DNA from: Thermodesulfobacteriota bacterium
Lineage (GTDB): Bacteria > Desulfobacterota > Desulfobulbia > Desulfobulbales > Desulfurivibrionaceae
Direction of reading: 5' to 3'
DNA: 32,545 nucleotides
Assembly (NCBI GenBank): GCA_040756495.1
Contig: JBFLYY010000097.1
Location: 1 to 32,545 of the forward strand
Part shown: in pieces, positions 8,297-28,390 of the stretch
How the letters are laid out: every line of letters begins with the position of its first letter
Position numbering within the stretch: position 1 is the first letter of the stretch
The notes under the pieces: generated by a model
Databases searched by the model: none
Told to the model about the DNA's origin: nothing
Seen by the model: the letters and a program-made list of their open reading frames with translations, nothing else
Position numbers and translations under genes: made by a program

Positions 8297-8350
8297 GACA
8301 AACCTCCTTATATGATGATAAGTCCTTGTTGTTGTTCAGTGCGGGCCGGA

Positions 8351-9769: not shown

Positions 9770-9778
9770 GATTCGAGG

Positions 9779-9835
9779 ACAATATACGGCCCTCTCCCCT
9801 TTGTCAACAAAAAACAAAACGAAAAACCGCGACCG
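9779..9835 (-). promoter_or_regulatory. sigma70-like dsrA promoter candidate with T-rich UP-like element
   Basis: Minus strand reads GGTTTTTCGTTTTGTTTTTTG-TTGACA (-35, 9802..9807)-17 nt-TATTGT (9779..9784). An alternative -10 is TATATT with a 15-nt spacer. This implies a leader of about 145 nt. Confidence 0.45.
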
Positions 9836-9965
9836 CTTTCCCTGATTTTTTCCCAGTCCTGACAAGCGATTGCGCCCCATCCGCCGTTGCGGTTTTGCCT
9901 CGCCGACCAGGGCGATTTCGTCTCCCGGCCGGAGCCAATTGACGGTCGCCCTCATGGCTCTGCTG

Positions 9966-10799: not shown

Positions 10800-10835
10800 G
10801 AGTTCCGTTCTCCCTCGCTGTCGTTGTCTTCCGGC

Positions 10836-11816
10836 TCACGCCGCCCGGGGCGGCCCGAAAATCCGGTCGGTCAGTTTCACGTACCAGGCCGCGGCCTGCA
10901 CCTGCACAATATAGGAAAGGGCGATCACCAGGGCCGTATCGGCGCCGGCGCTCCCGAAGGCGTTGACCGCGATGGCCAGCGCGATGGAGAGGTTACGCAT
11001 CACCGTGCCATAGACCAGGGCGATGGCGTCCCCCCGCGGGAAGAAGAGCTTGCCCACAATGGTGCTCAGGGCGAAGTTGGCACCGTAGATCACAAGGAGC
11101 GGCACCAGGATCACCCCGAGGATGGCGGGGTTGGCCGCCAGACCTTGCGCCTTCAAGGCAATGGCCACAAAGACGATGCCCAAGACCCCGATGGTCGAAA
11201 GCGACGGAAAACGGGGCGCCCAGATCGTCTTGAAGGCCTCCTGGCCATAGCGCTTCAGAAACCACTGCCGGGTGCAGTAGCCGAGCAGCATGGGCAGGAA
11301 GACGATGACCACGATCTGCCGCGCCACCAGGAGCATGTCCACCTCGACCCTGGCCCCCAACAGCCCCTGCACGTAAAAGGGCGTGGCAATGGAGCCGAGG
11401 GTGAGGCCGATGACGGTCATGTTGATCGCCGCGGCGAGATTCCCCTTGGCAAAGCCGGTCCAGGAGATGGTCATGCCGCTGGTGGGCAACAGGGCCGCGA
11501 GCAAGAGCCCCAGGGCCATGTAGGGCTGATCCGGGAAACAGAACAGGCCCATGCCGTAAGCGAGAAAGGGAATCACGCCGAAGTTGATCGCCTGGGTGGC
11601 CGCCTGCAACCGGACGTTGATCCCCTGCTTGAGATGGGCGATGTTCAAGGTGATCATCATCGGATAGACCATGAGGAAGGTGAGCGGCATGATCCATGCC
11701 TTGAGCCCCTTCACGGTCCCGGGGGCCACGGTCACCCCGAAGAGATAGCCCGCGGCCATCATCATCGGGATGACGACCACCAGCCGCTTGTTGATCTTGA
11801 TGAGAAATTGCCACAT
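10836..11816 (-). CDS. Acr3 / bile-acid:Na+ symporter superfamily permease (Acr3-like, substrate unknown)
   Basis: About 10 hydrophobic segments. LLPTSGMTISWTGFAKGN aligns by eye with the Acr3 TM4 block (..ARCIAMVxVWNxLAKGD). Start set at the ATG at 11816 (GGGGGTGG RBS) rather than the RBS-less GTG at 11858. Confidence 0.8.
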   Translation of the reverse strand: MWQFLIKINKRLVVVIPMMMAAGYLFGVTVAPGTVKGLKAWIMPLTFLMVYPMMITLNIAHLKQGINVRLQAATQAINFGVIPFLAYGMGLFCFPDQPYMALGLLLAALLPTSGMTISWTGFAKGNLAAAINMTVIGLTLGSIATPFYVQGLLGARVEVDMLLVARQIVVIVFLPMLLGYCTRQWFLKRYGQEAFKTIWAPRFPSLSTIGVLGIVFVAIALKAQGLAANPAILGVILVPLLVIYGANFALSTIVGKLFFPRGDAIALVYGTVMRNLSIALAIAVNAFGSAGADTALVIALSYIVQVQAAAWYVKLTDRIFGPPRAA

Positions 11817-11867
11817 GGAACCACCCCCTGTGTTCAGGTTCAACGCGCCGCGCGCCACCGCGCCGGC

Positions 11868-12278
11868 CTATCGGGCCTCTTCGATCATGCCGACGATCTT
11901 CTGGTAGGTCTCGGCCAGGGAGATGGGGAACTGCTCGTCGTCCACCACGGCCCGGATGTTGTCCGCGCTGTAGCGCAAGAAACGGATCTGGGTCTTGCCG
12001 TTTTTGGTGAAGGTCATGATGAACTTGGGCATGAGCACCGCCCGTTCGGGATTGGCGGAAAGGCTCCTGGCCGCCTTTTCCGGCTTGCAGATCTGGATCA
12101 TGTGCAGATCAAAGCCCTCGGCCACCTCGGCGCCGTGCCTGCCGAAGGAGTGCGCCATCTCCATGGTGTTCTCGTTGTGGATGACGAAACCGTACTTTGT
12201 GACCACCTTGCCGAGATCCTCGACAAACTGCCGGTTCGTCTTGCTCGTTTCCGCTGCATAGAGATTGTCACGATTCAT
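11868..12278 (-). CDS. DUF302 domain protein
   Basis: 136-aa product of DUF302 size and pattern (...GFVIHNENTMEMAHSF...FDLHMIQICKPEKAA...MPKFIMTF...). AAGGAG lies 7 nt upstream. It is the first gene of the DUF302-permease-NifX-like operon. Confidence 0.8.
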   Translation of the reverse strand: MNRDNLYAAETSKTNRQFVEDLGKVVTKYGFVIHNENTMEMAHSFGRHGAEVAEGFDLHMIQICKPEKAARSLSANPERAVLMPKFIMTFTKNGKTQIRFLRYSADNIRAVVDDEQFPISLAETYQKIVGMIEEAR

Positions 12279-12339
12279 GGCTGGACTCCTTCAATCGGTG
12301 CAAGGGAATGGAAGAGGGTTGTTTTTTGTGCATATGCCA

Positions 12340-12368
12340 GATATAGGAGGCAAAGCCTCCCCTGTCAA
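12340..12368 (-). promoter_or_regulatory. sigma70-like promoter candidate (TTGACA-17 nt-TATATC) for the DUF302 operon
   Basis: On the minus strand: TTGACA (12363..12368), 17-nt spacer, TATATC (12340..12345). Confidence 0.45.
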
Positions 12369-12408
12369 GAAGAAGTTAAGAAAATAATAAAATACTTCCC
12401 TGAAAGGT

Positions 12409-12437
12409 TTGACAGGAGTCCGGACCCGCGATAGGGT
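12409..12437 (+). promoter_or_regulatory. sigma70-like promoter candidate (TTGACA-17 nt-TAGGGT) for the CoADR-rhodanese operon
   Basis: TTGACA at 12409..12414, 17-nt spacer, TAGGGT at 12432..12437, about 64 nt upstream of the ATG at 12501. Confidence 0.4.
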
Positions 12438-12500: not shown

Positions 12501-14228
12501 ATGGCCCAGAAAATCGTCATCATCGGCGGGGTCGCCGCCGGCCCCAAGACCGCCTGCCGCGTCAAGCGCCTCATGCCCGAGGCCGAGGTCACCATCATCG
12601 ACCAGGACAACCTCATCTCCTACGGCGGCTGCGGCATCCCCTACTTTGTCTCCGGCGACGTCTCCGACGAGAAGGAACTGCGCAACACGAGCTTCCACAT
12701 GACCCGGGACGAATCCTTTTTCCTCAAGGCCAAGGGGGTCAAGACCATGACCGGCACCAGGGCACTGGCCATCGACCGCACACAGAAGAGCGTGGCGGTG
12801 GAAAACCTCGCCACCGGAGCCAAGGAATCGCTGCCCTACGACAAGCTGGTGCTCGCCACCGGCAGCCGGCCCAACATGCTCCCCATTCCGGGGGCGGACC
12901 TCGACGGCGTCTTCACCATCAGCGACCTCCACAAGGCCATGGCCATCAAGGAACGGGTGGCCAAAGGCGAGGTGGGCAAGGTGGTGGTGATCGGCGGCGG
13001 CGCCATCGGCATCGAGATGGCCGAATCCTTTGCCGACCTCTGGGGCCTCGAGACCACCATCCTCGAGTTCATGCCCCAGCTCCTGCCCCGCCTGGTGGAC
13101 TGGGACTTTGCCCGCATGCTCGAAACCCACCTCAAGGAAAAGGGGGTGGCGGTCTTTACCAGGGAATCCGCCACGGCCATCGAGGGAGAAGGCGGCAAGG
13201 TGAAGCGGGTGGTCACGGCCCAGCGGACCCTGGAAGCGGATCTGGTCATCATGGCCGTGGGCGTACGGGCACGGAGCGAACTGGCCCAGGCAGCCGGCCT
13301 TCTCGTCTCGGCCCAGGGCAACATCGTGGTCAACGACCGGTTGCAGACCTCGGACCCCAACATCTACGCGGCCGGCGACTGCATCGAGGTAAAGAACATC
13401 CTCACCGGCAAGAAGGGGATCGCGCCCATGGGGTCGCTGGCCAACAAGGAAGGCCGCATCGTCGGCGACAACCTGGCGGGTATCCCCACCGTGTATAAGG
13501 GATGGATCGGCAGCTTCACCATGAAGGCCTTCGAGCGCTGCATCGGCGCCACCGGCCTGGCACTGGACGCGGCCCTGGCCGAGGGGTTCGACGCCGCGGC
13601 GGTGACCACGGCCCAGTCGGACCGGGCCCACTTCTTCCCCACCCAGGCGGTGATCCCCCTGCGCCTCGTCTTCGACAAACGCACCCGCAAGGTGCTCGGC
13701 ATGCAGGGCTTCGGCCCCATGGGCGACGCGGTTCTGGCCCGGCTCGACGCCGCGGCGGCGATGATTATGCAGGGCGCCACCATCGACGACATGAGCCAGC
13801 TCGAAATGGCCTATGCCCCGCCCTTTGCCACGGCGCTCGACGCCTTAAACGCCACCGCCAACGTGGCCGACAACCTCATGGCCGGCCGCCTGCGGTACGT
13901 CCCGGTCAAGGAATTCCTCGACTGGATGGACGATTTCGCCTCCCGCCCCGACTGGGTGGCCCTCGACATCCGCCACCCCAACGAGACCAGGGTCTTTGTC
14001 GAAAAGTACGGGGCGGACAAGTGGATCTCGGTGCCCTATGTCGAGGTCCGCAGCCGCCATCAGGAGCTGCCTCGGGACAAGACCATGGTCATCATCTGCG
14101 ACGCCGGCACCCGGTCGTCGGAGATCCAGATCGTCCTCGACAGCGTGGGGCTTAGAAACAACCTGGTGCTGGGCGGCGGCTTCAACGTCATCCGCCGCCT
14201 GGGCGTGGCCTGGTGGCCCCAAAACTAA
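12501..14228 (+). CDS. CoA-disulfide reductase / NADH oxidase-family flavoprotein fused to a C-terminal rhodanese domain (persulfide/polysulfide reductase type)
   Basis: FAD fold IVIIGGVAAGPK, redox Cys in SYGGCGIPYF (Cys44), NAD fold VVVIGGGAIGIE. C-terminal rhodanese active-site loop ICDAGTRS (Cys533, codon 14097..14099). Confidence 0.9.
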   Translation: MAQKIVIIGGVAAGPKTACRVKRLMPEAEVTIIDQDNLISYGGCGIPYFVSGDVSDEKELRNTSFHMTRDESFFLKAKGVKTMTGTRALAIDRTQKSVAVENLATGAKESLPYDKLVLATGSRPNMLPIPGADLDGVFTISDLHKAMAIKERVAKGEVGKVVVIGGGAIGIEMAESFADLWGLETTILEFMPQLLPRLVDWDFARMLETHLKEKGVAVFTRESATAIEGEGGKVKRVVTAQRTLEADLVIMAVGVRARSELAQAAGLLVSAQGNIVVNDRLQTSDPNIYAAGDCIEVKNILTGKKGIAPMGSLANKEGRIVGDNLAGIPTVYKGWIGSFTMKAFERCIGATGLALDAALAEGFDAAAVTTAQSDRAHFFPTQAVIPLRLVFDKRTRKVLGMQGFGPMGDAVLARLDAAAAMIMQGATIDDMSQLEMAYAPPFATALDALNATANVADNLMAGRLRYVPVKEFLDWMDDFASRPDWVALDIRHPNETRVFVEKYGADKWISVPYVEVRSRHQELPRDKTMVIICDAGTRSSEIQIVLDSVGLRNNLVLGGGFNVIRRLGVAWWPQN

Positions 14229-14260
14229 TCCGTCTTGCGGGCAAAACAAGGAGGGGGATC

Positions 14261-15115
14261 ATGACGTGGTGCGCGACCAAACGCCATCTGCTGGTGGTCC
14301 TCCTTGCCTTCTCCTTGGGGCTGCCGCCCACCGCCGGTTTTGCCCTCGACGGCCAACTCAACCTCAACACCGCCACGGTGGAAGAGCTTGAGATGCTGCC
14401 CACCATCGGCCAAGCCCGCGCCAAGGCCATCAGCGACTACCGCCGCAGGCATGGCGCGTTTCGCTCGCTGGAGCAACTCCTCACCAACAAGCTGGTGGGC
14501 GAAAGCTCCCTGGTCGCTATCCGCCCCTATCTGAGCCTCTCCGGCGCCACCACCCTGAAGGCCGCCGCCCCTTCCTCGGCCAATCGAAAATCCGCTACAC
14601 CCGCCACACCCGCCGCAATCGCCCTCGACCGTCACCTTGCCACGCGGCCGGGCGAGATCCAAATCCTTACGGACGAGGCATACTTCCCCGCCCTGCTCCA
14701 GGCCATTGACGAAGCGCGGCGCACCATCGAAATGGCGATGTTTCTCTTCAAGACAGGGGATGCGCCGGACAACCGGCCGGCCCGACTGGCCAAGGCGCTC
14801 ATCGCGGCGCGAAGCCGCGGGGTGCGGGTGGAGGTGCTCCTTGAAAAATCAGGCTACGACGAGGGAGTCAACCGGGAAAACGAGGAGGTGGCAAACCTCT
14901 TGCGCAAAAACCGCATCGAGGTCCGCTTCGACACCCCGGAGACCACCACCCACGCCAAGCTGGTGGTGATCGACAGCCGCTACGTCTTCGTGGGCAGCCA
15001 CAACCTCACCCAGGCGGCGCTCAAACACAACCACGAATTCTCGCTGCTGATCGACAACAGTGCCCTGGCCCGGGAGGCAAGCGGCTACCTCGACCGGCTC
15101 CGCGCCAGGGAATAG
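14261..15115 (+). CDS. secreted ComEA-like helix-hairpin-helix domain fused to a single-HKD phospholipase D/Nuc-family nuclease domain
   Basis: Signal peptide (MTWCATKRHLLVVLLAFSLGLPPTAGFA). HhH block LNLNTATVEELEMLPTIGQARAKAISDYRRRHGAF. HKD motif HAKLVVIDSRYVFVGSHN, which fits HxK(x)4D(x)6GSxN. ATG at 14261 follows AAGGAGGGGG, 32 nt after the upstream stop. Confidence 0.8.
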   Translation: MTWCATKRHLLVVLLAFSLGLPPTAGFALDGQLNLNTATVEELEMLPTIGQARAKAISDYRRRHGAFRSLEQLLTNKLVGESSLVAIRPYLSLSGATTLKAAAPSSANRKSATPATPAAIALDRHLATRPGEIQILTDEAYFPALLQAIDEARRTIEMAMFLFKTGDAPDNRPARLAKALIAARSRGVRVEVLLEKSGYDEGVNRENEEVANLLRKNRIEVRFDTPETTTHAKLVVIDSRYVFVGSHNLTQAALKHNHEFSLLIDNSALAREASGYLDRLRARE

Positions 15116-15205
15116 GCTCCTCCGCCCCGCAGAGGGTCTCGCGCGCCACAGCGGCCGCCGCCCACTAGGGGTGCCTCACCGGTTCCCCCTCATCAGCTCC
15201 CCTCA

Positions 15206-17791
15206 TCAGCTCCCCCGGCGGCCACAGACCCTGTTGACCGCCGCGGCGAGATCCCGTTCGAGAATCGGTTTCATGATGAATTCCCGGATGCCGAAGGCCT
15301 TGGCGTTCTGCTCGTTGATGACCTCGCTGAACCCGGTGCAGAGGACAATGGGAATCTCCGGCCGGATGGCCATGACCTGCTGGGCGAATTCGATGCCGGT
15401 CATTTTCGGCATGGTCATGTCGGTGACGATCAGATCGAAGCCTTCGGGCGCGTTGCGGAAGGCCGCCAGGGCCTCCTCGCTGCCGGTGAAGAGCCTCACC
15501 GTGTACCCCAGCCGCTCCAGGACGACGCGTTCGAAATGGGCGATGGACTCCTCGTCGTCCAGCAGCAGGATCCGTTCGCTGCCGCGGGGCATCGGCGCCG
15601 GCGCCTCCTCCTCGGCCGCGGCCGTGGCCGTTTCCACCCTGGGGAAGTAAATCGAACAGGTGGTTCCCTTGCCGACCTCGCTCCGGACGGCGATATGGCC
15701 GTGGTGTTTCTGCACGATCCCGTGCACCACCGAAAGACCGAGACCGGTGCCCCTTCCCCGCTCCTTGGTGGTGAAATAGGGTTCGAAGATCCGCGCCAGC
15801 GTCGCCTGATCCATGCCGCAGCCGGTGTCGCCGACCTCCAGGCAGACATACGCACCAGGCGGCAGCCCCTGGAGTTCGGCCGGGCGGTCCGGGCCAAGCT
15901 CGACCGGCGTCAGGGAGACCCGCAACTCCCCGCCCTTTTCCGCCATGGCATGATAGGAGTTGGTGCAGAGGTTCATCACCACCTGGTGCAGCTGGACCGG
16001 ATCGGCCATGACGACCACCTCGGACGAGGGGATCTGCTGGGTGATGGCGATGCGCGAGGGGATGGTGGAACGCAGCAGCCGCAGTACCTCCTTGACCAGC
16101 AGGGCGATCTGGGTCGGCCGCAGTTCCGAACTGGCCTGGCGACTGAAGGTCAGGATCTGCTTGACCAGATCCCTGGCGCGGGTGCCCGCCTTGAGCACCT
16201 GCTGGAGATTGCCCCAGGCCTCGCTCTCGGGGGCGAGCTGTTTTTTCAGCAGCTCGCCGTAGCCGAGGATGGCCGTGAGGATATTGTTGAAGTCGTGGGC
16301 GATGCCGCCGGCCAGGGTGCCGATGGCCTGGATCTTCTGGGACTGGTAAAGCTGCTCCTTCAGCTCTTCCTGCTCCGTCACGTCGCGGAAGATGCAGCGG
16401 ATGGAAACCACCTCGCCGTCGGCCTGCTTGCAGTTCGCGGAGCCCTCGACACTGACCCTCTTCCCCTCCTTGTTCAGGAAGGCCAGCTTCATGTTCGCCA
16501 CGGCCCCCTCGGCCAGCAGCCGCTTGAAGGTCTGCCGGCAATCGGGCCTGCAATCGTGGGCCATCAGGTCGAGGAAGGAGAGGCCACCGAGTTCGCCGCT
16601 GCCGTAGCCCATCTTCTCGCGCCAGGAACGGTTTGCATACAGAACCTGACCGTCGGGCCGCAGCAGCAGGACGAGGTCGTGGGCATTTTCAAAGAGATCC
16701 CGATAGCGCTCCTCGCTCTCCCGCAGGGCGGCCTCGGACTGCTGGCGCTCGCGCACCTCCTCCTCCAGCAGGCGGCGCCGGGTCACGAGCAGGGTTTCCA
16801 GGCGGCCCAGATAGCCCCAGAAAAGCAGATAAAGGCCCAGCCCCAGCACGGCGAAGGACAGCGCCTGGATCAGGGACAAACGCCGCAGGAGCGCCTTCTT
16901 CGCCGAACAGTCGCGCAGGATGATGAGGTTGCCGACCTCCCGGCCGGAAATCTCCTTGAGCGGCACGATGCCGCCATCGTAAACGATCCTGTCCAGGGTG
17001 GTGCTGAAGGAGGAAAAGGTTGCCTGGCCGGCATGGTGGACCCCCAGCTCTTTCTTGAGGCCATGGGGGATGCGGCGCAGGGTCTGCTCGGAAATCACGT
17101 GCCGCTCGAAGAGGTTCCAGTCGGGAGGGTGCCGCAGCATGACCATCCCCTCTTCCCATTGGGCGCGCTGCACAAAACGCTTGTCGATGACGGAGAGCAT
17201 CTCGATGCCAAGCGTCTCCTTGAGCTGGCGGACGACGTGGGAGATCTCCTCGCCCAGCTCCAGGTAGCCGGCCAGGGTGCCGTCGATGTACCACGGCACC
17301 ACCACCCGCAAGGTAAAGGTTCCCAGCGGCCCCAGCTCCACCCCCCACGAGGCCTGTTGCCTCCTGGCCGCGTCCTCCAGGGTATAACGGTCGATCAGGT
17401 CGCCATGTCGGGATGGCTGGTGCACCCGGAGGAAATTGAGATGATCCGGGCCGTGAAAATAGAAATGGGTGACGCGATACTTGCGCTTGAACTCATCGAA
17501 GCGGGGCTGCGCCCTGCGCAGCAGGGTTTCCCGATCCCGGCCCAGCCACGCCTTCCGCAGTCCCTCGTCCTCCTCGATGCAATCGAGCAGCCCCAGCATG
17601 ACTTCGGCGTCCTTGGCCAGGACGGCCTCATAGACCCGCTGGGCGCCGCGAACGGCATCCTCGGTTTCCCGTACGGACTGCGACCACGTCCACCACTGGA
17701 CGCCTCCCACCGTGATGGCCAGCAAGGCGACAAACGCGATGCCCAGAGGGACGAGGATGGATTTCTTGATCTGCTCGGTCTCGTTCTTCAA
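15206..17791 (-). CDS. hybrid sensor histidine kinase (periplasmic Cache-like sensor, PAS, HisKA, HATPase, receiver)
   Basis: Two TM segments flank a sensor domain of about 270 aa. PAS region (ERYRDLFENAHDLVLLL...), H-box IAHDFNNILTAILGY, G-boxes DTGCGM and GTGLGLS, and a C-terminal receiver (ILLLDDE...DLIVTDMTMPKMTG...KP). TTG start preceded by GGAGGG. Confidence 0.9.
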   Translation of the reverse strand: MKNETEQIKKSILVPLGIAFVALLAITVGGVQWWTWSQSVRETEDAVRGAQRVYEAVLAKDAEVMLGLLDCIEEDEGLRKAWLGRDRETLLRRAQPRFDEFKRKYRVTHFYFHGPDHLNFLRVHQPSRHGDLIDRYTLEDAARRQQASWGVELGPLGTFTLRVVVPWYIDGTLAGYLELGEEISHVVRQLKETLGIEMLSVIDKRFVQRAQWEEGMVMLRHPPDWNLFERHVISEQTLRRIPHGLKKELGVHHAGQATFSSFSTTLDRIVYDGGIVPLKEISGREVGNLIILRDCSAKKALLRRLSLIQALSFAVLGLGLYLLFWGYLGRLETLLVTRRRLLEEEVRERQQSEAALRESEERYRDLFENAHDLVLLLRPDGQVLYANRSWREKMGYGSGELGGLSFLDLMAHDCRPDCRQTFKRLLAEGAVANMKLAFLNKEGKRVSVEGSANCKQADGEVVSIRCIFRDVTEQEELKEQLYQSQKIQAIGTLAGGIAHDFNNILTAILGYGELLKKQLAPESEAWGNLQQVLKAGTRARDLVKQILTFSRQASSELRPTQIALLVKEVLRLLRSTIPSRIAITQQIPSSEVVVMADPVQLHQVVMNLCTNSYHAMAEKGGELRVSLTPVELGPDRPAELQGLPPGAYVCLEVGDTGCGMDQATLARIFEPYFTTKERGRGTGLGLSVVHGIVQKHHGHIAVRSEVGKGTTCSIYFPRVETATAAAEEEAPAPMPRGSERILLLDDEESIAHFERVVLERLGYTVRLFTGSEEALAAFRNAPEGFDLIVTDMTMPKMTGIEFAQQVMAIRPEIPIVLCTGFSEVINEQNAKAFGIREFIMKPILERDLAAAVNRVCGRRGS

Positions 17792-17843
17792 CTACCCTCC
17801 GCTGCAAACGCGGGCTTGGTCGCCCATGGGCCGCCGCCCGCCC

Positions 17844-20501
17844 TCACCCCTTTCGCCTGACGACCCGCACCTTGCGCACCCCGCCGCTCGACAGGGTGCC
17901 GCCCTTGACCCGGCGCACCAGCACCTTCTTCTTTACCGGCGCCTGGCCCGGAACGGACGAAGCGCCAACGGCTGGCGGCAGGTCGCCTTCTCCGGGCAAC
18001 GGCTGCGCGTAGGTGCAACCGGCCCGCGGACAACGCAGGGAAATCTTGCCGGCCAGGTTCTTCTTTTCCACCAGGAAGGGCGAATCGCAGACCTGGCAGG
18101 GGATGGGGTGGGGCCTGGACCAGGCCATGAACTCGCAGTCCGCCTCGGGGCAGACGTAGAAGGGTTTGCCGGTGGGGGTGTGCTTGCTGACGATGTTGCC
18201 GATCTGGCACAAGGGGCAGCGCAGGGAGAGCCCCACCTCCTTGCCGTACGATTCGGAATGGCGGCATTCCGGGTGGCCGGAGCAGAACCAGTACTTGCCG
18301 AAACGGTCCTCCTTGAGCAGGAGCGGCCGGCCGCAATCGGGACAGGGCTTGCTCGGCCCGGCCGTCACCAGCGTGGCGGCGGCCGCCACCGGTTCCGGTT
18401 CGGGCGCGACCTCCCTGGCCGCCTCGGCAAAGAGTTCCTGGCCAACCGGCTCCGGAACCACGTCCAGCGGCGCCGGCTCCAGGTCGAGGGCCGGGGCGAC
18501 GGCCTCCTCCATCACCGGCGGTTCCTCCGCTGCCCCGGCAACCTCCGGCGCCAACGCCATGGCCGGCTCCATGATCTCCGGTTCCGCCCCTTCCTGGGCA
18601 ACCGCCTCCGGGGCCGGAGCCTCCTCCGCCGGCAGGGCCTCCTCCGCCGCCTCTTCCGGCAGCGGCTCCGCCACCGGGGCGGCCGCAACGGCATCTTCCG
18701 CCATGGGCGGTTGTTGGAGCGGCACCGTCGCGGGGGCCACCGGCGCCTCCCCCCCCGGGCTCTTGATGATGCTGCGCGAGACCCTGGTCCGGGGCCGGGG
18801 CGCCAGCGGCACCTTGACCTTGACCAGCACGTTGCCCTGCATCATCATGGTCTGATCGAACTGCTGGAGGGCGAAGGCCAGGGGCTTGCGGCTTTCGATC
18901 ACCTCGCCCACGGTCTGCTCGAAATAGGCCGCGAGGTTGATGCCCTTCATGGAGGGAAAGGCCTTGTTCATGACGTTGACGAGGGTGGCGGTGTTCTCCC
19001 GGCAACGCCAGGTGCCGTCCGCCATCAGGGCCAGATAGCCGCCATCGAGCATGCGTTGCAGCATGGCGATGGCGGTGGTGTCCAGGGACAGGGAGAAATC
19101 GGCCAGATCGTTGGCCAGCCCCTCGAAGGTGTAATACTCCGGCGGAAAACCCACGGTCTGCTCGGGAATGATCTGGATGTTGCGCACCTCCTGGCCGTGG
19201 GCGAGTCGGGCCAGCGGGGATGGCGCCAGCAGTTCCCGGAACTGCGGCCCCTGGTAGGCGGCCAGGAACCCGGGCTGCTGCACGACCCGGCCGCTGGCCC
19301 GGAACAGACAGCTTTCCCCGGCCTGCATCACCACCTCCCGCGACACTCCCTCGGCGTCCCGCATCTGGCTGGCCAGGGCCCGGGAGTGAACGAGGGCATA
19401 GATCTGGTGCGCCTCCGGCCCCAGGGTGCCGGCAAGATTGGCCGGGGTCCATTCCGGCCGCAGGGGAAGGAGCACGTCGTTCGCTTCGGCCTGGCAACCG
19501 CCGCCGGCCAGGGCCTCCGGCCCGAAATGCCGTTCCACCTCGCGGCGCAGGCGGGCATAGACCGGTTGCGGATCGCCGGTGCCGCGCGGGCTCGCCGCGC
19601 TGATCAGCCCCACCGTTTCGCCATTGACGATCACTCCCTCGTAGAGTTCCCGCACCGCGCGCAACACCTGCGCCGGCTGGAGCCCATGGGCAAGATAGGC
19701 CTCGTGCAGCAACTCCAGCAGGCGGAAAGGCGCCGGCGGCCCGATCCGCACTTCCTCCTCCGCCACCTCGCCGACCAGGAAGGGCTTGCCGCGGAAGAGC
19801 CCCACCACCTCCTTGCCCTCAAGGGCATCCCGCACGTAGCCATCGTCGGTGATGCCGTAGGCCTCTTCGAGCCGGGCATCGAATTCGCCCTCCTCCGAGG
19901 CCAGGCGCACCCGCACCTGCCACTTGAGCGGCGGGGTAAAGGCCCGGATCTCCGTCTCGCGTTCCGCCAGGAGAAAGAGGATGGCCAGGGTATCGCCGGT
20001 GAGCGGCAGCCCCTGCGGCCCGGTGGTGGTTCCCAGCAACCGTTTGAGGTGGCGGCTCAGGTGGGCGCTGAAGAGCATGCGCAGGTGGTAGGCCGCGGCC
20101 GCGTCGCTGTCCACCGTCTCCACCAGGCGGAAGGATTCCCGCAGTTCGTCGCGGCTCAGGCCGAAGAGGTGGAGCCGCCGCGCCCCCTGCAGACCACTGG
20201 TTTCGGCCTGCAGATATTCGCTGATCAGCCAGGCCCAGTACTCCCCGCGCTGATCGCCCTCAAAGGCGAGATAAAGGGTGGCGGCGCCGGGGGGCGGCAG
20301 TTTGGCAAAGAAGTCGTGCCCGCCCTCCGCCACGGCAAAGGTGAACCTGGGCGGCTCCCGCTTGAGCGGATCCTTGGGCGGCAGGAGCGTCGCCTTGACC
20401 GGCGCCGCGGTCACCACCAGAACCTCCACCTCGCCGCCCAGCTGCGCCGCGACCGTGCGGGCCTTCTGCTCGGAATCAACAATAATCACGTCTTTCGCCA
20501 T
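17844..20501 (-). CDS. type IA DNA topoisomerase (TopA)-like protein lacking the canonical active-site tyrosine; three C4 zinc ribbons and a basic tail
   Basis: TOPRIM-like N-terminus, TopA-like blocks (PPAPF, ELYEGV, IYALVHSRALASQM, FRASG..GFL). An acidic Pro/Ala/Glu linker, then CPDCG..C..C, CPLC..CP..C and CQVC..CP..C ribbons and a KKKVLVRRVK.. tail. The active-site block reads GLISAASPRG instead of GLITYMRTDS. GGAGG lies 5 nt upstream of the ATG. Confidence 0.9.
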   Translation of the reverse strand: MAKDVIIVDSEQKARTVAAQLGGEVEVLVVTAAPVKATLLPPKDPLKREPPRFTFAVAEGGHDFFAKLPPPGAATLYLAFEGDQRGEYWAWLISEYLQAETSGLQGARRLHLFGLSRDELRESFRLVETVDSDAAAAYHLRMLFSAHLSRHLKRLLGTTTGPQGLPLTGDTLAILFLLAERETEIRAFTPPLKWQVRVRLASEEGEFDARLEEAYGITDDGYVRDALEGKEVVGLFRGKPFLVGEVAEEEVRIGPPAPFRLLELLHEAYLAHGLQPAQVLRAVRELYEGVIVNGETVGLISAASPRGTGDPQPVYARLRREVERHFGPEALAGGGCQAEANDVLLPLRPEWTPANLAGTLGPEAHQIYALVHSRALASQMRDAEGVSREVVMQAGESCLFRASGRVVQQPGFLAAYQGPQFRELLAPSPLARLAHGQEVRNIQIIPEQTVGFPPEYYTFEGLANDLADFSLSLDTTAIAMLQRMLDGGYLALMADGTWRCRENTATLVNVMNKAFPSMKGINLAAYFEQTVGEVIESRKPLAFALQQFDQTMMMQGNVLVKVKVPLAPRPRTRVSRSIIKSPGGEAPVAPATVPLQQPPMAEDAVAAAPVAEPLPEEAAEEALPAEEAPAPEAVAQEGAEPEIMEPAMALAPEVAGAAEEPPVMEEAVAPALDLEPAPLDVVPEPVGQELFAEAAREVAPEPEPVAAAATLVTAGPSKPCPDCGRPLLLKEDRFGKYWFCSGHPECRHSESYGKEVGLSLRCPLCQIGNIVSKHTPTGKPFYVCPEADCEFMAWSRPHPIPCQVCDSPFLVEKKNLAGKISLRCPRAGCTYAQPLPGEGDLPPAVGASSVPGQAPVKKKVLVRRVKGGTLSSGGVRKVRVVRRKG

Positions 20502-20697
20502 GCCGCCTCCAAAACGCGCCGCGCACCGTGTCGCGGGAGCGTCAAAAATCTAATTTTTCTCACATGATATAGAATTTTTTTCGCCACCGTCCAGCAGAGA
20601 GTGCATTCTGCCCCGCTTTTTTCCGCCCCAATCGCGGCCGCGGCCCTGCCATTTTCCGCGGAACCCTTCAAGGAAATGGCCGGACCGTTCGACATGG

Positions 20698-20706
20698 TGG
20701 TATAGT
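20698..20706 (+). promoter_or_regulatory. extended -10 promoter candidate (TGGTATAGT) for the FGE-domain gene
   Basis: TGnTATAGT at 20698..20706, about 155 nt upstream of the ATG at 20861. No matching -35. Confidence 0.25.
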
Positions 20707-20860
20707 AAATTGTTGCGAAACTTGCTTTGCAGCAGCCTCCGTGCGCCCAGGGATGGGGCGCCAATTCCGCGAGTTCGTCGTTGCCAAAGGTCAGGGACGA
20801 CTTTTGCACCATCCTGAGAGTGGCGGCACACGCCTTTATCCCCGAGGAGAGTCGTCTTTC

Positions 20861-23374
20861 ATGCCCGCTCTTGTCACCCTGCACGGTATCGATCAGGCCC
20901 TGGCCGCGCTGGACCTCAAGCCCGGCACCCTGAAGGCCCTGCTCGCCGAGGCGATCCGCTCCTTTTTCCCCGACGAGGAATCCCTCCAGCAGATCACCGC
21001 CATCCCTGCCGACGAACTGGTCAAGAAGGTGTACGGCGTCACCAAGGCGGCGGAGATCAAGGCGAAGAAGAAGAACTTCAGCAGCCTCAAATCGGGCCTC
21101 AACAAGAACCTGCGCGACCTCGACGGCGACCGGAACCCGGAAGGCGTCATCATCGGCCGCGACAACGTCTTCATCGTCTCCGACGAACGCAAGGACAACC
21201 TGATCCGCGAACTGGGGCTCGCCGCCGAATCGACCCAGACCCTGCGGGAGATGTTCAAGTCCTTCAAGAGCCTCTTCAACGAGGTCATCAAGGAAAAGGG
21301 GGTTCACGAGGTCCACGACCTGCTGCGGGAATTCGACGAGACCAAGAAACTCATCGAACAGCTGGGCGGTGAGTTGCCCGGCGAGCCGGCGGTTACGGAA
21401 ACGCCGCCGGCCGAGGCAGTGGCGGAGCCCGGCGAGGAGGTCGAGGTCGTCGAGGCCGAGGAGGTGGAAGAGGTCGAACCACCCGAGGAACTCGTCGAGG
21501 AGCTGCCTCCCGGCGAGATCGAGGAGATCCCGGCCGAGGAGATCGAAGAGATCGAAGCGCTGCCCGAGGCCGCCGCCGAGGAGGAGGTGGAGGAGGTCGC
21601 GCCCGAGGAGATTGAAGAGGTTTCCGAGGAGGAGTTCGAGGAAGTCGGGGAGATCCCCCCTCCGCCAGGGGCGGTCGAGGAACTCGGCGAGGAGATCGAG
21701 GTCGTCGAGGCCGAGGAGGTGGAAGAGGTCGAAGAGCTGCCGCCGGCCGCGGAAGAGGTGGAAGAGGTCGCAGAGGCCCCGACCGGGGAGGCGGTCGAAG
21801 AGGTACCGCCCGGCGAGGTCGAGGAGATTCCGGTCGAGGAACTGGAAGAGGTCGAAGGGCTGCCGTCGGCCGCGGAAGAAGTGGAGGAGGTCAGCGAGGA
21901 GGAGATCGAAGAAGTCTCCGAAGAGGAACTCGAAGAGGTTGCGGCAGCACCGCCGCCAGAGGCAGTGGAGGAACCTGGCGAGGAGATCGAGGTCGTCGAG
22001 GCCGAGGAGGTGGAAGAGGTCGAAGAGCTGCCGCCGGCCGCGGAAGAGGTGGAAGAGGTCGCAGAAGCTCCGACCGGGGAGGCGGTCGAAGAGGTACCGC
22101 CCGGAGAGGTCGAGGAGATCCCGGCCGAGGAACTGGAAGAGGTTGCGGAACTCCCGCCGGCCGCGGAAGAGGTGGAAGAGGTCAGCGAGGAGGAGATCGA
22201 AGAGGTCTCCGAGGAGGAACTCGAAGAGGTTGCGGCAGCGCCACTGGCAGAGGCGGTGGAGGAACCTGGCGAGGAAGTCGAGGTCGTCGAGGCCGAGGAG
22301 GTGGAAGAGGTACCGCCCGGCGAGGTCGAGAAGATTCCGGCCGAGGAACTGGAAGAGGTTGCGGAACTCCCCCCAGCCGCGGAAGAGGTGGAAGAGATCG
22401 CGCCCGGGGAAATCGAGGAGGTCTCCGAGGATGAGCTTGAGGAAGTCGAGGAGGCCCCGGCGGAAGCGACGCGGAAGGCAAGCCCTCTCGACCTCCTCTC
22501 AAAGTATCTGGAGGCGGACGAGGCAGTGGCCGAGGAGGGCGACTACCTCAAGGAGACCGACGAGGAGTACGCCGCCCAGATCCTCAGCCGCTTCATGCCC
22601 AAGTTCGTCCACATTCCGGGCGGCGACTACCTCATCGGCAGCGCGCAGCCCAAGGGGTTGGAGCAGCGGCAACGGCGGATCACCCTCCCCCCCTACTACA
22701 TCGGCCAGTTCCCGGTGACCAACGACCTCTTCGACCTCTTTGTCCGCGAGACCGGCTACGAGACCGATGCCGAGGCCGCGGGCTACGGCATCGTCTTCGA
22801 GGGCCGCTGCGTCACCACCATCGATCCGGTGACCAACCGCGCCACGGTAACGCTCTCCGCCGGCACCAGCGCCCATACCGTGAGCGGCGCCACCTGGCGC
22901 CACCCCCACGGCCCGGAAAGCACCATCGAGGGCAAGCACCACCACCCGGTGGTCCAGGTGAGCCACAAGGATGCCATGGCCTTTGCCGCCTGGGCCGGCA
23001 AGCGGCTGCCCACGGAAGAGGAGTGGGAGGCAGCGGCCCGCGGGCCCAACGGCCATCTCTACCCCTGGGGCACCACCTGGCTGCCCAAGCTCGCCAACCT
23101 CGAATCCTCCTGCCTGGGCGATACCATGCCGGTGGACCGCCACGGCCGCGAGGCCATGAGCCACTTCGGCATCCACGATCTTCTGGGGAACGTCTACGAG
23201 TGGACCGCCACCATCCACCAGAGGCCGGGAACGGCCGCGGCCGCCGGCCGGAACGTCATCTACGTGCTGAAGGGGGGCTGCTGGACCTCGCGCGGGGTGA
23301 TCGCCACCTGCCACCGGGAGATCGAGCGGGGCCACTACTGGGCCAACACCATCGGCTTCCGGTGCGCCGTTTAG
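20861..23374 (+). CDS. multidomain protein: unknown N-terminal domain, about 350-aa acidic tandem-repeat region, C-terminal FGE-sulfatase (SUMF1-like) domain
   Basis: ATG at 20861 with GAGGAGA about 10 nt upstream (the track ORF begins at a GTG at 20741). The C-terminal domain (about 22604..23371) has FVHIPGGDYLIGS, YYIGQFPVTN, HPVVQVSHKDAMAFAAWAGKRLPTEEEWEAAARG, YPWG, GNVYEWT, LKGGCW and IGFRCAV. Confidence 0.85.
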   Translation: MPALVTLHGIDQALAALDLKPGTLKALLAEAIRSFFPDEESLQQITAIPADELVKKVYGVTKAAEIKAKKKNFSSLKSGLNKNLRDLDGDRNPEGVIIGRDNVFIVSDERKDNLIRELGLAAESTQTLREMFKSFKSLFNEVIKEKGVHEVHDLLREFDETKKLIEQLGGELPGEPAVTETPPAEAVAEPGEEVEVVEAEEVEEVEPPEELVEELPPGEIEEIPAEEIEEIEALPEAAAEEEVEEVAPEEIEEVSEEEFEEVGEIPPPPGAVEELGEEIEVVEAEEVEEVEELPPAAEEVEEVAEAPTGEAVEEVPPGEVEEIPVEELEEVEGLPSAAEEVEEVSEEEIEEVSEEELEEVAAAPPPEAVEEPGEEIEVVEAEEVEEVEELPPAAEEVEEVAEAPTGEAVEEVPPGEVEEIPAEELEEVAELPPAAEEVEEVSEEEIEEVSEEELEEVAAAPLAEAVEEPGEEVEVVEAEEVEEVPPGEVEKIPAEELEEVAELPPAAEEVEEIAPGEIEEVSEDELEEVEEAPAEATRKASPLDLLSKYLEADEAVAEEGDYLKETDEEYAAQILSRFMPKFVHIPGGDYLIGSAQPKGLEQRQRRITLPPYYIGQFPVTNDLFDLFVRETGYETDAEAAGYGIVFEGRCVTTIDPVTNRATVTLSAGTSAHTVSGATWRHPHGPESTIEGKHHHPVVQVSHKDAMAFAAWAGKRLPTEEEWEAAARGPNGHLYPWGTTWLPKLANLESSCLGDTMPVDRHGREAMSHFGIHDLLGNVYEWTATIHQRPGTAAAAGRNVIYVLKGGCWTSRGVIATCHREIERGHYWANTIGFRCAV
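21431..22466 (+). repeat. in-frame tandem repeat (291-bp / 97-aa unit, about 3.6 copies) encoding Glu/Val/Pro/Ala-rich sequence
   Basis: Unit starts (GGCGAGGAG/A..) at 21431, 21686, 21977 and 22268. The two central units (21686..22267) differ at about 6 of 97 residues by manual alignment. The first copy is 255 bp and the last is truncated. Confidence 0.9.
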
Positions 23375-23616
23375 GAGAGGAAGAGGATGGGAGGAGAAAA
23401 GGGGGAGAGAAAAAGGCTGAACACTGATACCTCTTTGGCAGGAGCCGCCTTAGCGGCGACAGGGAGAAGGGCGACAAAGGGAACTGTCGCGGGTGAACCC
23501 GCTCCTACGGCCATACATCCGTCTCTTCATTCCTGACCATACACTGCCTTGACCAGATCGTGGGCCTTCTGCCAGACCTTGAGCTGCCGCCGTCCCATCT
23601 CTTCCCTTCTCATCCT

Positions 23617-24693
23617 CTATCCCTCTAACACGCTATCAATCAACTCCTCGCTCACCTGGTCGGTGATCACCACCTTGCCGATCGTGGCGGGCAGCACGAA
23701 GAAGACGCGGCCGCCCACGGTCTTCTTGTCGCTCTTGAGATAGCCCTTGATCCGGGCGCGGTCGAAGTGCGGCGGGATACTCACCGGCAGGCCGTAGTCG
23801 ATGAGGAGCTGGCGCAGGGCCGCGGCCTCTGCCTGCGGGAAGAGCCCCTGCCGCACGGCCAATTCCGCCACTGCGGCCATACCCATGCTCACCGCCATGC
23901 CGTGGGCCAGGGTGTAACCCGAGGCCGCCTCCACCGCATGGCCGATGGTGTGGCCGAAGTTCAGGATGCGGCGCAGGTCCGCCTCCTTCTCGTCCGCCGC
24001 CACCACCGCCGCCTTGATGGCGCAGCAGCGGGCGATCACCCCTTCGAGCACGGAAAGGTCGCGGCCGAGAATCGCCGTCCGCTTTGCCTGCAACTCGGCA
24101 AAGAAGGGCGCGTCGTAGATCACGCCGTACTTCACCACCTCGGCCAGGCCATTGAGCATCTCCGCCGCGGGCAGTTCCCGCAGCACCTCGCTGTCGATAT
24201 AGACCCGGCGCGGCTGGTAGAAGGTGCCCACAAGATTCTTGCCCTCGGGGATATCGACCCCGGTCTTGCCGCCCACCGAGCTGTCCACCTGGGCAAGCAG
24301 GGTGGTGGGAATCTGGACAAAGGGGATGCCGCGCATGTAGATCGAGGCGAGGAAGCCGGTCATGTCGCCGGTCACTCCCCCACCCAGGGCGATGAGGCCA
24401 TCCTTGCGGTCCACCCCGAGTTGCGCCAGCCGGCTGGCCAGCGCGCCGATGGTGGCGAGATTCTTGCTCGCCTCGCCGTGGGGAAAGGTGATGCAATCGG
24501 CCTTGATTCCGGCCGCGGCCAACGAGGCCATGAGCCGCTCGCCGAAGAGGTTGGCCACAGAATCGTCGGCCACCACCACGTACCGCTTGGCAATGGTGCG
24601 TGTCTTGAGATCCTGGCCGATCTCCGCCAGCATCCCTGCCTTGATCACAATGTCGTACGCCCGGTTGCCGAGCCCCACCTGTACTGTGCGCAC
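23617..24693 (-). CDS. aroB: 3-dehydroquinate synthase
   Basis: GGGVTGDMTGFLASIYMRGIPFVQIPTTLLAQVDSSVGGKTGV and HTIGHAVE motifs. Start moved to the GTG at 24693 (AGGAG 7 nt upstream; VRTVQVGLGNRAY.. matches the usual AroB N-terminus). The track start (TTG, 24723) lies almost on the predicted -10. Confidence 0.93.
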   Translation of the reverse strand: MRTVQVGLGNRAYDIVIKAGMLAEIGQDLKTRTIAKRYVVVADDSVANLFGERLMASLAAAGIKADCITFPHGEASKNLATIGALASRLAQLGVDRKDGLIALGGGVTGDMTGFLASIYMRGIPFVQIPTTLLAQVDSSVGGKTGVDIPEGKNLVGTFYQPRRVYIDSEVLRELPAAEMLNGLAEVVKYGVIYDAPFFAELQAKRTAILGRDLSVLEGVIARCCAIKAAVVAADEKEADLRRILNFGHTIGHAVEAASGYTLAHGMAVSMGMAAVAELAVRQGLFPQAEAAALRQLLIDYGLPVSIPPHFDRARIKGYLKSDKKTVGGRVFFVLPATIGKVVITDQVSEELIDSVLEG

Positions 24694-26728: not shown

Positions 26729-26757
26729 GGTATACGCAAGGGCCGGGGAATTGTCAA
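26729..26757 (-). promoter_or_regulatory. sigma70-like sat promoter candidate (TTGACA-17 nt-TATACC)
   Basis: On the minus strand: TTGACA (26752..26757), 17-nt spacer, TATACC (26729..26734). This implies a leader of about 85 nt. Confidence 0.5.
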
Positions 26758-26814
26758 GGAAAAATTGGCCAGCCGGAAGGCCCGATTTTACTGGCCATGA
26801 CGGCCGATGGCACG

Positions 26815-26838
26815 AAAAAAACCGCCGCGTTGCGCGGC
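26815..26838 (-). terminator. second (weaker) terminator after the flagellar operon
   Basis: Minus strand: 6-bp GC stem (26824..26829 / 26833..26838) with a 3-nt loop, followed by GG and TTTTTTT. Confidence 0.5.
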
Positions 26839-26841
26839 CGC

Positions 26842-26866
26842 AAAAAGGCCCGCTCGAAGCGGGCCT
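26842..26866 (-). terminator. rho-independent terminator after flaG
   Basis: Minus strand reads AGGCCCGC-TTCGA-GCGGGCCT followed by TTTTTG. It lies 122 nt downstream of the flaG stop. Confidence 0.75.
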
Positions 26867-26987
26867 GCGAACGTCGGCAAAAGGAGGGGAATCCGGCAGG
26901 CAATGCGTGCCGCTCTTGGCGCCAACGGCCGGCACGCCACCGCGGCCGGCGGCCGTGGCGGCGGTGTTGCCGCGGGAAGGGTGCGGC

Positions 26988-27395
26988 TTACGCCTTGCCG
27001 TCGAAAAGGAGGCCGACCAGTTCGTCCAGTTTCTTCCGCAGGGCCAGGGCCTCTTCCGCCGGGAACTGCCGCAGCACCTCGCCGCTCTGGCGGTCGGTTA
27101 CCTGCACCACCACGGCATCGGGCTCGTTGTGCAGGGAGAAGCCGAGGCGGGTATTGCCGATGGCATCCAGCCGTTCCTGCATCTCCTTCACCGCCCTGGC
27201 CGCCTCCTCGGCGGTCACCTTCCGCTTCTCCTGGGCCTCTTTGCCCAGCATCGCCTGCCGGTCGAGGGCCGACCTGGAGGAATCGCCGCCAGCGGCCACC
27301 GGGGCCACCTGCGGCTTTGTCCGATCTTCCCGTTCGACTGCCGGAGCGGTTGGCACGCCAAATCCCTTGACTTCCGCACTCATGCTGACATCCAT
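26988..27395 (-). CDS. flaG: flagellar protein FlaG
   Basis: The C-terminal block ...LGFSLHNEPDAVVVQVTDRQSGEVLRQFPAEEALALRKKL is typical of FlaG. GGAGGTGGAT serves as RBS. Confidence 0.85.
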   Translation of the reverse strand: MDVSMSAEVKGFGVPTAPAVEREDRTKPQVAPVAAGGDSSRSALDRQAMLGKEAQEKRKVTAEEAARAVKEMQERLDAIGNTRLGFSLHNEPDAVVVQVTDRQSGEVLRQFPAEEALALRKKLDELVGLLFDGKA

Positions 27396-27417
27396 GATCC
27401 ACCTCCAACCTGCTTGA

Positions 27418-27801
27418 TTACGCCCTGTTGCTCAGTACCCGCGGCATGGCCCCCCGGCTGCCGCCCTGGGCAGCCCCCAATTTCCCCAGCAACTGCTTGC
27501 CCCGCCGCATGGCGCACTGCTGTTTTGCGATCTCTTCCTGCCGCGCCCGCACCGCTTGGGCCAGCTGCCGTTCGCCCTCCAGCAGGAGACCGAGGGCCTG
27601 CTGCACCGCGGCCAGTTCGTCGGCCGGCACTCCGGCGACCCGGCCCAGCTTCACGAACCCCTGCTGCAACTGCCGGAAGGCGATCTCCCGCTGGCCCCGC
27701 CAGAGAAGACACTCCGCCAGCCGGCCCTCGCACAGCGCCTGCCGATGGGCAGCCTGCAAGGCCGCGAACCGCTCAAATCCCTGCCGCAACTCTTCCTGCA
27801 T
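27418..27801 (-). CDS. hypothetical helical protein in the fliS-downstream position (FliT/FlgN-like chaperone candidate)
   Basis: Gln/Leu/Ala/Arg-rich and predicted all-helical by composition. ATG at 27801 preferred; the track start at 27819 is a GTG 3 nt from the fliS stop. No family recognised, so the call rests on position only. Confidence 0.55.
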   Translation of the reverse strand: MQEELRQGFERFAALQAAHRQALCEGRLAECLLWRGQREIAFRQLQQGFVKLGRVAGVPADELAAVQQALGLLLEGERQLAQAVRARQEEIAKQQCAMRRGKQLLGKLGAAQGGSRGAMPRVLSNRA

Positions 27802-27822
27802 GGCCAGACACCACCCCACGCT

Positions 27823-28326: not shown

Positions 28327-28390
28327 GTGCGTCCTTCCTCCATCGAGTGCGTGCGTTTCCCGTTCAAACCCGGATCGTCTTTCCCGCCTC

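Follow-up and report, generated by a model that had tools for sequence, protein, structure and literature searches.

A homologue of bacterial topoisomerase I that has lost its catalytic tyrosine is encoded in the 32,545-nucleotide stretch of Thermodesulfobacteriota DNA analyzed here (contig JBFLYY010000097.1, positions 1 to 32,545; hereafter the window). Its open reading frame (ORF) covers positions 17844..20501 on the reverse strand, stop codon included, and the product of 885 amino acids (aa), a tyrosine-less paralogue of TopA, is here called TopL. The ORF was characterized by ORF listing, Pfam, AlphaFold2 (AF2) modelling, Foldseek and the ratio of nonsynonymous to synonymous substitutions (dN/dS). 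The catalytic residues have been lost throughout a broad family of such proteins, which preserves the topoisomerase fold, is under purifying selection and is linked to a partner gene. On balance, TopL is probably a neofunctionalised, non-catalytic TopA paralogue that binds nucleic acid and acts together with the partner protein.

The register of the active site was set by phmmer against the Protein Data Bank (PDB), by MAFFT alignment with Escherichia coli TopA, and by hhalign, in which a family profile of 64 sequences (A2) was set against a profile of 24 canonical TopAs (A3; probability 100). All three alignments placed the TopL sequence GLISAASPRG (residues 298-307; 19581..19610, reverse strand) opposite the canonical GLITYMRTDS. 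Ala302 (codon 19596..19598) occupies the position of the catalytic Tyr319 of E. coli TopA, Ser304 that of Arg321 and Arg306 that of Asp323. An alanine at the tyrosine position and the loss of the following Arg and Asp had been read by the first-pass annotation of this DNA, made from the sequence alone, and the three methods agree with it. The nearest tyrosine is Tyr315 in PQPVYARL, 13 residues downstream of Ala302, as that annotation had also stated. None of the alignments places a Tyr in the active site, and Tyr315 was rejected as an alternative nucleophile because relatives have F, L, I or V at this position. From the aligned residues, no phosphotyrosyl intermediate is predicted to arise at the canonical site of TopL. 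With no 5'-phosphotyrosyl intermediate it would neither relax DNA nor carry out strand passage.

The substitutions are not limited to the window protein. Among the 64 family sequences the Tyr-equivalent position is A in 35, S in 26, T in two and V in one, and never Y. The position of Arg321, which is R in 24/24 canonical TopAs, is L, S, A or V. The roles of the G-strand groove residues and the other positions mapped here are those described for E. coli TopA. The following positions (E. coli numbering) are each invariant in 24/24 canonical TopAs and replaced in the family: E115 (changed in 63/64, R in 55/64), Y319 (A/S/T/V), R321, D323, H365, E366 (G), R369 (L), R169 (M), R173 (S/A), Y177 (R/K), S192 (P), G194 (N), R195 (Y/F), Q197 (S), R493, T496, Y497 and R507. 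With both the catalytic and the groove residues exchanged, neither the chemistry of cleavage nor the G-strand groove of the canonical enzymes is left intact in the family. The positions that are kept are E9 (E or D in 64/64), K13 (61/64), D111 (55/64), D113 (62/64), E117 (59/64), R168 (R/K) and T318 (T/S in 64/64). The functional roles of the TOPRIM Glu, the DxD motif, the Tyr and the adjacent Arg were taken from a review of type IA enzymes (PMC10969213).

Some of these numbers could suggest a topoisomerase with another nucleophile: the Thr/Ser equivalent to Thr318, the Ser that replaces the Tyr in part of the family, or a Tyr displaced by +1 or +2. Indeed, all 64 sequences have T or S at TopL position 301 and 26 of them S at position 302; a Tyr is present at +1 in four loci (L031, L040, L042 and L043; 6/64 sequences of A2) and at +2 in a group reading ALISSLYP, and the closed toroid fold is kept. 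However, Thr318 is equally invariant in the canonical enzymes, which do not use it as nucleophile, and no candidate besides T/S301 is conserved family-wide, the later tyrosines occurring inconsistently in a few genes. Together with the loss of Arg321 and most residues positioning the G-strand, and with the complete absence of domain 3 from the shortened family members described below, this makes an alternative nucleophile very improbable.

The first-pass annotation had described a TopA scaffold from end to end, and the domain comparisons bear this out. The Pfam model Topoisom_bac (PF01131) matched TopL in two stretches with 91 bits (gathering threshold 35.1) and Zn_ribbon_Top1 (PF01396) with 40.4 bits (gathering threshold 32). 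Of the Pfam domains which the annotation had named for checking, these two were found while Toprim (PF01751) gave no match even at E ≤ 1. The NCBIfam equivalog topA_bact (TIGR01051) scored 118.8 bits, below its cut-off of 456.4 bits, and topB 39.6 bits, below 515.75. The top PDB sequence match in phmmer was Streptococcus mutans TopA (6ozw; E 2e-24, residues 3-548). In the AF2 model, which was built on the family alignment, the core (residues 1-560) has a predicted local distance difference test (pLDDT) score above 90. Foldseek aligned the core to the E. coli 67K and S. mutans TopA structures (1ecl, 1cy1, 6ozw) with template modelling (TM) scores of 0.75-0.78 and E about 1e-33. Domains 1-4 (D1-D4) are collinear with those of TopA, and the model predicts that TopL keeps the four-domain toroid.

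Conservation within the family is unevenly distributed over this scaffold, with its maxima in domain 4, in the second and third zinc ribbons and at the very C-terminus. Domain 1, a degenerate TOPRIM-like domain (residues 1-130; 20112..20501, reverse strand, as are all TopL features), is less conserved than D4 and the ribbons. It includes D9, K13, E81/D83/R85 and E87 as mapped to E. coli TopA. D9 stands for E. coli E9 and E81/D83/R85 for D111/D113/E115, just as the first-pass annotation had them, leaving acidic residues at three of these four positions. The D9 and E81 variants are limited to the sub-clade of the window protein, and most relatives keep E9, D111 and D113. The N-terminal segment of domain 4 (residues 131-188, 19938..20111; ...HLKRLLGTTTGPQGLPL...LLAERETEIR) has the highest conservation of the core. 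The C-terminal segment (residues 451-560, 18822..19151; PPEYYTFEGLANDLADFS ... SRKPLAFALQQFDQTMMMQG) is the signature region of the family.

Behind the core lies an acidic, disordered linker rich in Ala, Pro and Glu (residues 565-716, 18354..18809) with pLDDT below 50 and a net charge of -23, the least conserved of all regions. It is followed by three topoisomerase I-type C4 zinc ribbons with invariant Cys columns (residues 720-829, 18015..18344). Pfam picks up two of the ribbons, and all three Cys sets are complete (C720/723/740/746, C762/765/784/789 and C802/805/824/829). Ribbons 2 and 3 are nearly invariant in the family, and the ribbons retain all their Cys ligands and aromatic residues across it. 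Aromatic residues mark those Topo_C_ZnRpt units that bind single-stranded DNA (PMC10969213). The protein ends in a basic tail (17847..17936; ...KKKVLVRRVKGG...RKVRVVRRKG) with a net charge of +10, so that also the three ribbons and the Lys/Arg tail of the first-pass annotation are in place.

The family is defined here by the D4 signature ...GRKxLxFALxQFDQT..., the motifs of zinc ribbons 2 and 3, a C-terminus of the KVRVVRRK type and the partner gene alongside. TopL of the window has the D4 signature and the C-terminal tail, and the partner gene is next to it. Its ribbons read P-TGK-PFYVC, CEFMAW and LRCPRAGC by eye, the pattern scan covering the relatives, of which P0002, P0018, P0020 and P0053 have P[TA]GKxFYVC, CEFMAW and LRCP[RK]AGC.

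A protein search with TopL found about 85 clusters of 36-96% identity, and those with names were from Desulfurivibrionaceae, Desulfobulbaceae, Thiovibrio or Thermodesulfobacteriota. The scores then drop from 347 to 219 bits, the level at which ordinary TopAs start. In a locus scan with one genome per species, 78 loci were found, all from the same group (Thermodesulfobacteriota). Among the carriers are named metagenome-assembled genomes in Desulfobulbales, and isolates as well (Hydrosulfovibrio ferrireducens CB1MN and strain M19); Hydrosulfovibrio, like Thiovibrio, is a member of Desulfobulbales. When 85 locus ORFs were aligned to the family hidden Markov model, roughly 68 were full-length, and in these the Tyr-equivalent was A, S, T, V, N or P and never Tyr. 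The survey of Tyr-less homologues that the first-pass annotation had suggested thus reveals a clade-wide family. When 1.84 billion representatives (clusters at 50% identity) were searched exhaustively by HMMER with the family profile, about 60 of them outscored every canonical TopA. All canonical matches ranked below the family carry GLITYMRTDS, and no Tyr-containing intermediates between the family and the canonical TopAs were present among the 1.84 billion representatives. Public names of the family members are 'DNA topoisomerase', 'topoisomerase DNA-binding C4 zinc finger domain-containing protein' and 'hypothetical protein'.

Also outside the TopL family the search revealed TopA-like representatives with altered active sites, all on metagenome contigs (P0204, P0236, P0200, P0207 and P0234). 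P0204 reads GLITFILTD, with Tyr replaced by Phe and Arg by Leu and TOPRIM intact, and P0236 reads GLITFMRSD, with Tyr replaced by Phe. P0200 and P0234 are without the DxD motif, and in P0207 the Arg is replaced by His. Judging from these sequences, inactive type IA paralogues may be more widespread than the TopL family.

The TopL gene is under purifying selection. Nei-Gojobori dN/dS was 0.25 in the comparison with the 96%-identical copy of locus L005, which stems from an independent sequencing run; two relatives about 70% identical gave 0.28 and 0.24. The core is the most constrained part (0.20). With dN/dS of about 0.25 TopL is therefore no decaying pseudogene, in line with the first-pass annotation, to which decay was not obvious. 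A pseudogene, or a housekeeping topA whose Tyr is missing only through an error of alignment or sequencing, is refuted also by the intact frame with its ribosome-binding site, the same substitutions in 78 genomes, the agreement of three alignment methods and the independently sequenced copy; we regard its probability as negligible. A phage or mobile origin was likewise rejected, since no relatives of TopL were found in IMG/VR and its composition is like that of the host.

The family also includes reduced forms. In P0181, P0179 and P0184, which are full-length, TOPRIM is degenerate, and in P0180 it is absent. At least a dozen representatives of 470-540 aa (P0210, P0212 and P0230 among them) are mini forms: TOPRIM, D2 and D3 are missing from them, and what is left is both segments of domain 4, a linker of acidic character, ribbons 2 and 3 and the basic tail known from TopL. 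The motif KV[RV][VI]VRR[KR]K at the C-terminus is common to full-length and mini forms. Two mini forms of 520-537 aa have been placed in their loci, at 5471..7033 in L078 and at 6011..7624 in L082. The N-terminal domain-4 segment of TopL aligns with residues 17-77 of the former, and the mini form matches positions 468-574 of NCBIfam topA, in the region of the C-terminal segment. P0209, named from Candidatus Magnetomoraceae bacterium, has two tandem D4 modules. Because the mini forms retain just these parts, the sequences point to D4, ribbons and tail as the functional core of the family rather than the gate or cleavage domains.

The reduced forms bear also on the possibility that TopL keeps the TOPRIM metal site and carries out a Tyr-independent chemistry, for example hydrolytic nicking as by RNase M5 or OLD-family enzymes, which are TOPRIM nucleases, with the toroid and ribbons capturing the substrate. 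The residues at E. coli positions 9, 13, 111, 113 and 117 are conserved, despite the loss of Tyr, at the frequencies given above, and the TOPRIM segment is modelled with high confidence. On the other hand, Glu115 has become Arg in most members, Pfam Toprim misses the window protein and finds just a few relatives, and the conservation of domain 1 falls short of that of D4 and the zinc ribbons. Furthermore, TOPRIM is degenerate in P0181 and absent from P0180 and all the mini forms, which keep the partner gene. Such chemistry is therefore considered unlikely.

The partner gene (20861..23374, forward strand; 837 aa, likely start ATG 20861) is divergent from TopL. Its product begins with an N-domain of 125-175 residues in the family (20861..21385 in the window, from an alignment of 26 members, A4, built from the locus sequences) with the conserved motifs KAKRKNLSSLKS...NPEGIIIGRDNVF. 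The domain is followed by an acidic region of roughly 400 residues with a net charge of -164 and 164 Glu, part of which is formed by a 291-bp tandem repeat (21494..22311; Tandem Repeats Finder). At the C-terminus there is an FGE/SUMF2-like domain (about 22580..23374; Pfam FGE-sulfatase, 1.4e-51), the closest PDB match of which is human SUMF2/pFGE (1y4j, E 1e-42). In one pairwise alignment, the window partner has S and A where FGE has its catalytic pair (human Cys336/Cys341). Among 39 orthologues the equivalent of Cys336 is S, T or N in all, and that of Cys341 is T, S, A or P in 33. Because the catalytic cysteines are missing, the partner is apparently a second dead enzyme.

The N-domain alignment gave no significant match in PDB or Pfam, and a word-indexed protein search for N-domain homologues found one. 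The AF2 model of the N-domain, computed from a two-sequence alignment, had pLDDT 45 and was unusable. Nine of the 26 N-domains showed weak matches to Pfam PF08967 (ENCP4, putative type 4B encapsulin shell; best E 0.0045), which may reflect chance or remote homology and are unconfirmed.

In essentially all loci with enough flanking sequence, the partner N-domain gene lies directly upstream of TopL and divergent from it. In L078 and L082 the genes surrounding TopL in Desulfobulbales are missing, yet the partner adjoins the mini form directly downstream on the same strand. In L078 the end of the mini form at 7033 overlaps the partner ORF, which opens at 7014 (7014..9728). Upstream of the mini form there is a LysR-type regulator gene in both loci, and downstream of the pair in L078 there are genes for sugar-nucleotide enzymes. 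Because the partner adjoins the mini forms in an unrelated genomic context, there is good sequence-based evidence that TopL and the partner form a functional gene pair.

Taken as a non-catalytic, nucleic-acid-binding paralogue, TopL would have its selected function mainly in the CAP-like domain 4, zinc ribbons 2 and 3 and the KVRVVRRK tail. By analogy with the C-terminal domains of TopA, these parts would be the binding surface for nucleic acid, the likeliest ligand being single-stranded or underwound DNA; binding is suggested because the ribbons keep the Cys and aromatic residues linked to single-stranded DNA binding (PMC10969213). The arginine that stands in place of Glu115 (Arg85) may pair with the acidic residues still present and so fill what was the Mg2+ site. 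TopL would work in a physical complex with the partner, the two forming a module specific to Thermodesulfobacteriota. The opposite charges of the TopL tail (+10) and the partner repeat (-164) might, speculatively, lead to competition or masking. The first-pass annotation had proposed a DNA-binding pseudo-topoisomerase, and this part of it is strengthened by the family-wide loss of Tyr, Arg321 and most groove residues, the predicted toroid, the purifying selection and the low topA_bact score.

Several points weigh against this interpretation. E/D9, K13, D111, D113 and E117 are still conserved in most full-length members, which hints that a metal site or some chemistry has been kept. The region sat-aroB-partner-TopL-PLD/HhH-CoA-disulfide-reductase-like-dsrAB is syntenic across Desulfobulbales, and the adjacency of TopL and the partner is therefore weak evidence alone in this order; the linkage argument depends on the two mini-form loci. 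Also no canonical topA was found within about 1.18 Mb of TopL-locus sequence. The canonical matches closest to TopL are from Acidobacteria, Paenibacillus and Desulfovibrio, and a search from P0188, the most Desulfovibrio-like representative (it belongs to Desulfarculales), gave no match on a contig with a TopL gene. Bacteria as a general rule carry at least one topoisomerase I (PMC10969213). Together with the missing active site, this rule supports the view that TopL would not be the housekeeping enzyme.

TopL could also be a decoy or regulator of the real topoisomerase I, occupying TopA sites on RNA polymerase (RNAP) or underwound DNA by its TopA-like ribbons and tail, with no cleavage, and thereby tuning supercoiling or R-loops, with the partner as an accessory or antagonist whose polyacidic region masks the basic tail. 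This would fit the C-terminal ribbons and tail being best conserved and the opposite charges of tail and partner repeat. Also the full-length Foldseek matches of TopL are headed by E. coli TopA and RNAP-TopoI complexes (4rul, 9gda). The idea is pure inference, and it leaves the conservation of domain 4 unexplained; the ribbons have moreover diverged from those of E. coli, and the PDB phmmer search gave no match to the E. coli C-terminal domain. It is unlikely, if a little less so than TOPRIM chemistry. A broader proposal, which we hold as tentative, is that TopL and the partner constitute an unrecognised two-protein DNA-associated system, in which the toroid would serve as a non-cutting clamp or sensor for single-stranded or underwound DNA or support a Tyr-independent chemistry at the acidic TOPRIM site that has been kept.

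No PADLOC model matched TopL, the partner or the mini forms, and a role in a defence system was rejected, the DrmC/NucT-like gene downstream of TopL also being missing from the mini-form loci. This gene (14213..15115, forward strand) encodes a protein with a ComEA-like helix-hairpin-helix (HhH) and a phospholipase D (PLD; NucT/DrmC-like) domain, is convergent with TopL in most Desulfobulbales loci and matches the PADLOC DrmC/MkoB models at 1e-15 to 1e-16. Because it is absent from the mini-form loci, it probably lies outside the module of TopL and the partner.

Compared with bacterial TopA, TopL has the same collinear domains, predicted toroid, C4 zinc ribbons and basic tail, and it retains the motifs ERExEI, PPxP[FY], LYxGV, GLI[TS], IYxLIxxRAxASQM and GF[LM]xxY. 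Unlike TopA, it lacks the catalytic Tyr, Arg321, Asp323, His365 and Glu115, its G-strand groove is remodelled, its TOPRIM falls below Pfam detection and its score (119 bits) below the 456-bit equivalog cut-off. An acidic linker of roughly 150 residues has been inserted, and the family is restricted to Thermodesulfobacteriota with a constant neighbour gene. On sequence grounds we treat TopL as a TopA homologue which passes the Pfam superfamily tests and is not classed as topoisomerase I, because the defining catalytic features and the equivalog threshold are not reached. Topoisomerase III (TopB) is marked by a Lys after the TOPRIM Glu and a Pro after the catalytic Tyr (PMC10969213), whereas TopL reads VDSEQK, has no Tyr and scores low with the topB model.

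Proteins of the E. coli YrdD type are stand-alone TopA-type C4 zinc ribbons without topoisomerase activity and resemble the C-terminal half of the mini forms. They differ from TopL, which keeps the whole catalytic-core fold, and from the mini forms, which keep domain 4; the family has also its own tail motif and partner gene. The Topo VIB-like meiotic partners of Spo11 are non-catalytic relatives of another topoisomerase class. TopL is like them in being a topoisomerase-derived protein re-used outside classical strand passage, but differs in topoisomerase class, domain of life and function. The C-terminal domain of the partner lacks the FGE catalytic cysteine pair as does SUMF2/pFGE, an inactive FGE paralogue, but the partner is apparently cytoplasmic, bacterial, equipped with a novel N-domain and a polyacidic repeat, and genetically coupled to TopL. 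A type IA family without the Tyr did not come up in phrase searches of the published literature, and in a 2024 review of type IA diversity the terms 'inactive' and 'paralog' are absent and no inactive paralogue is mentioned (PMC10969213).

The TopL gene starts with ATG at 20501..20499. A ribosome-binding site GGAGG (20506..20510, coordinates read on the forward strand; reverse-strand feature) stands 7 nt 5' of it in the sequence. A consensus scan predicted a sigma-70-like promoter serving TopL (TGGACG-18-TATCAT, 20593..20564, reverse strand), which is overlapped by a conserved block, AAATTCTATATCATGTGAGAAAAATTRGATTTTTTGA, at about 20545..20600 (reverse strand) in an alignment of the TopL/partner intergenic regions of the four closest relatives (A6). 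A second block in these regions, ACTATACCAYCRTGTCGA...CGGCYATTTCCTTGA at about 20670..20715, is likewise kept among the four. The scan of the divergent intergenic region for regulatory motifs found only the sigma-70-like promoter and the conserved blocks, and Rfam had no match within 15000..24000 of the window. The GC content at third codon positions of TopL is 0.87, that of the neighbouring genes 0.81-0.91. The exact 885-aa frame, the ribosome-binding site and this composition accord with the intact ORF, good ribosome-binding site and host-like codon usage of the first-pass annotation.

TopL and the PLD gene are separated by an inserted gene for a hybrid sensor histidine kinase (15206..17791, reverse strand; dCache_3, PAS, HisKA, HATPase and receiver domains). 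It is also present in L005, the 96%-identical contig. In L043 TopL is followed by a match of 57% identity, and most other loci do not have the gene in this place. By synteny with L001-L004, dsrAB is expected near 10-12 kb of the window. Long ORFs without a Pfam match are located at 6869..9862, 10824..12434, 26751..28121 and 28325..30484, all on the forward strand, and some of them may be shadow ORFs of opposite-strand genes, the window having 64% GC. The remaining genes include a Fic-domain protein (1293..2492), a CobB/CobQ-like amidotransferase (2752..4275) and a 730-aa flagellin with Flagellin_IN repeats (30327..32519), all on the reverse strand. This context is ordinary, and in related loci flagellar genes (fliD, fliS, flaG) stand beside sat.

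Type IA topoisomerases are universal, and their active site of Tyr, Arg and TOPRIM is treated as invariant. Annotation as 'DNA topoisomerase' carries the risk that family members are miscounted as functional enzymes in genome surveys. If the tentative two-protein system were true, it would be the first natural catalytically reprogrammed type IA topoisomerase. The family provides a natural reduction series from full-length through TOPRIM-less and D4-only to tandem-D4 proteins, and a two-gene module is defined by its tight link to another protein that also seems to be a dead enzyme and bears an extreme polyacidic repeat. The hosts of the module, Desulfobulbales sulfur disproportionators and relatives of cable bacteria, are biogeochemically relevant. 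A large selected family without the active site but with the toroid would give the type IA fold a second, non-catalytic use.

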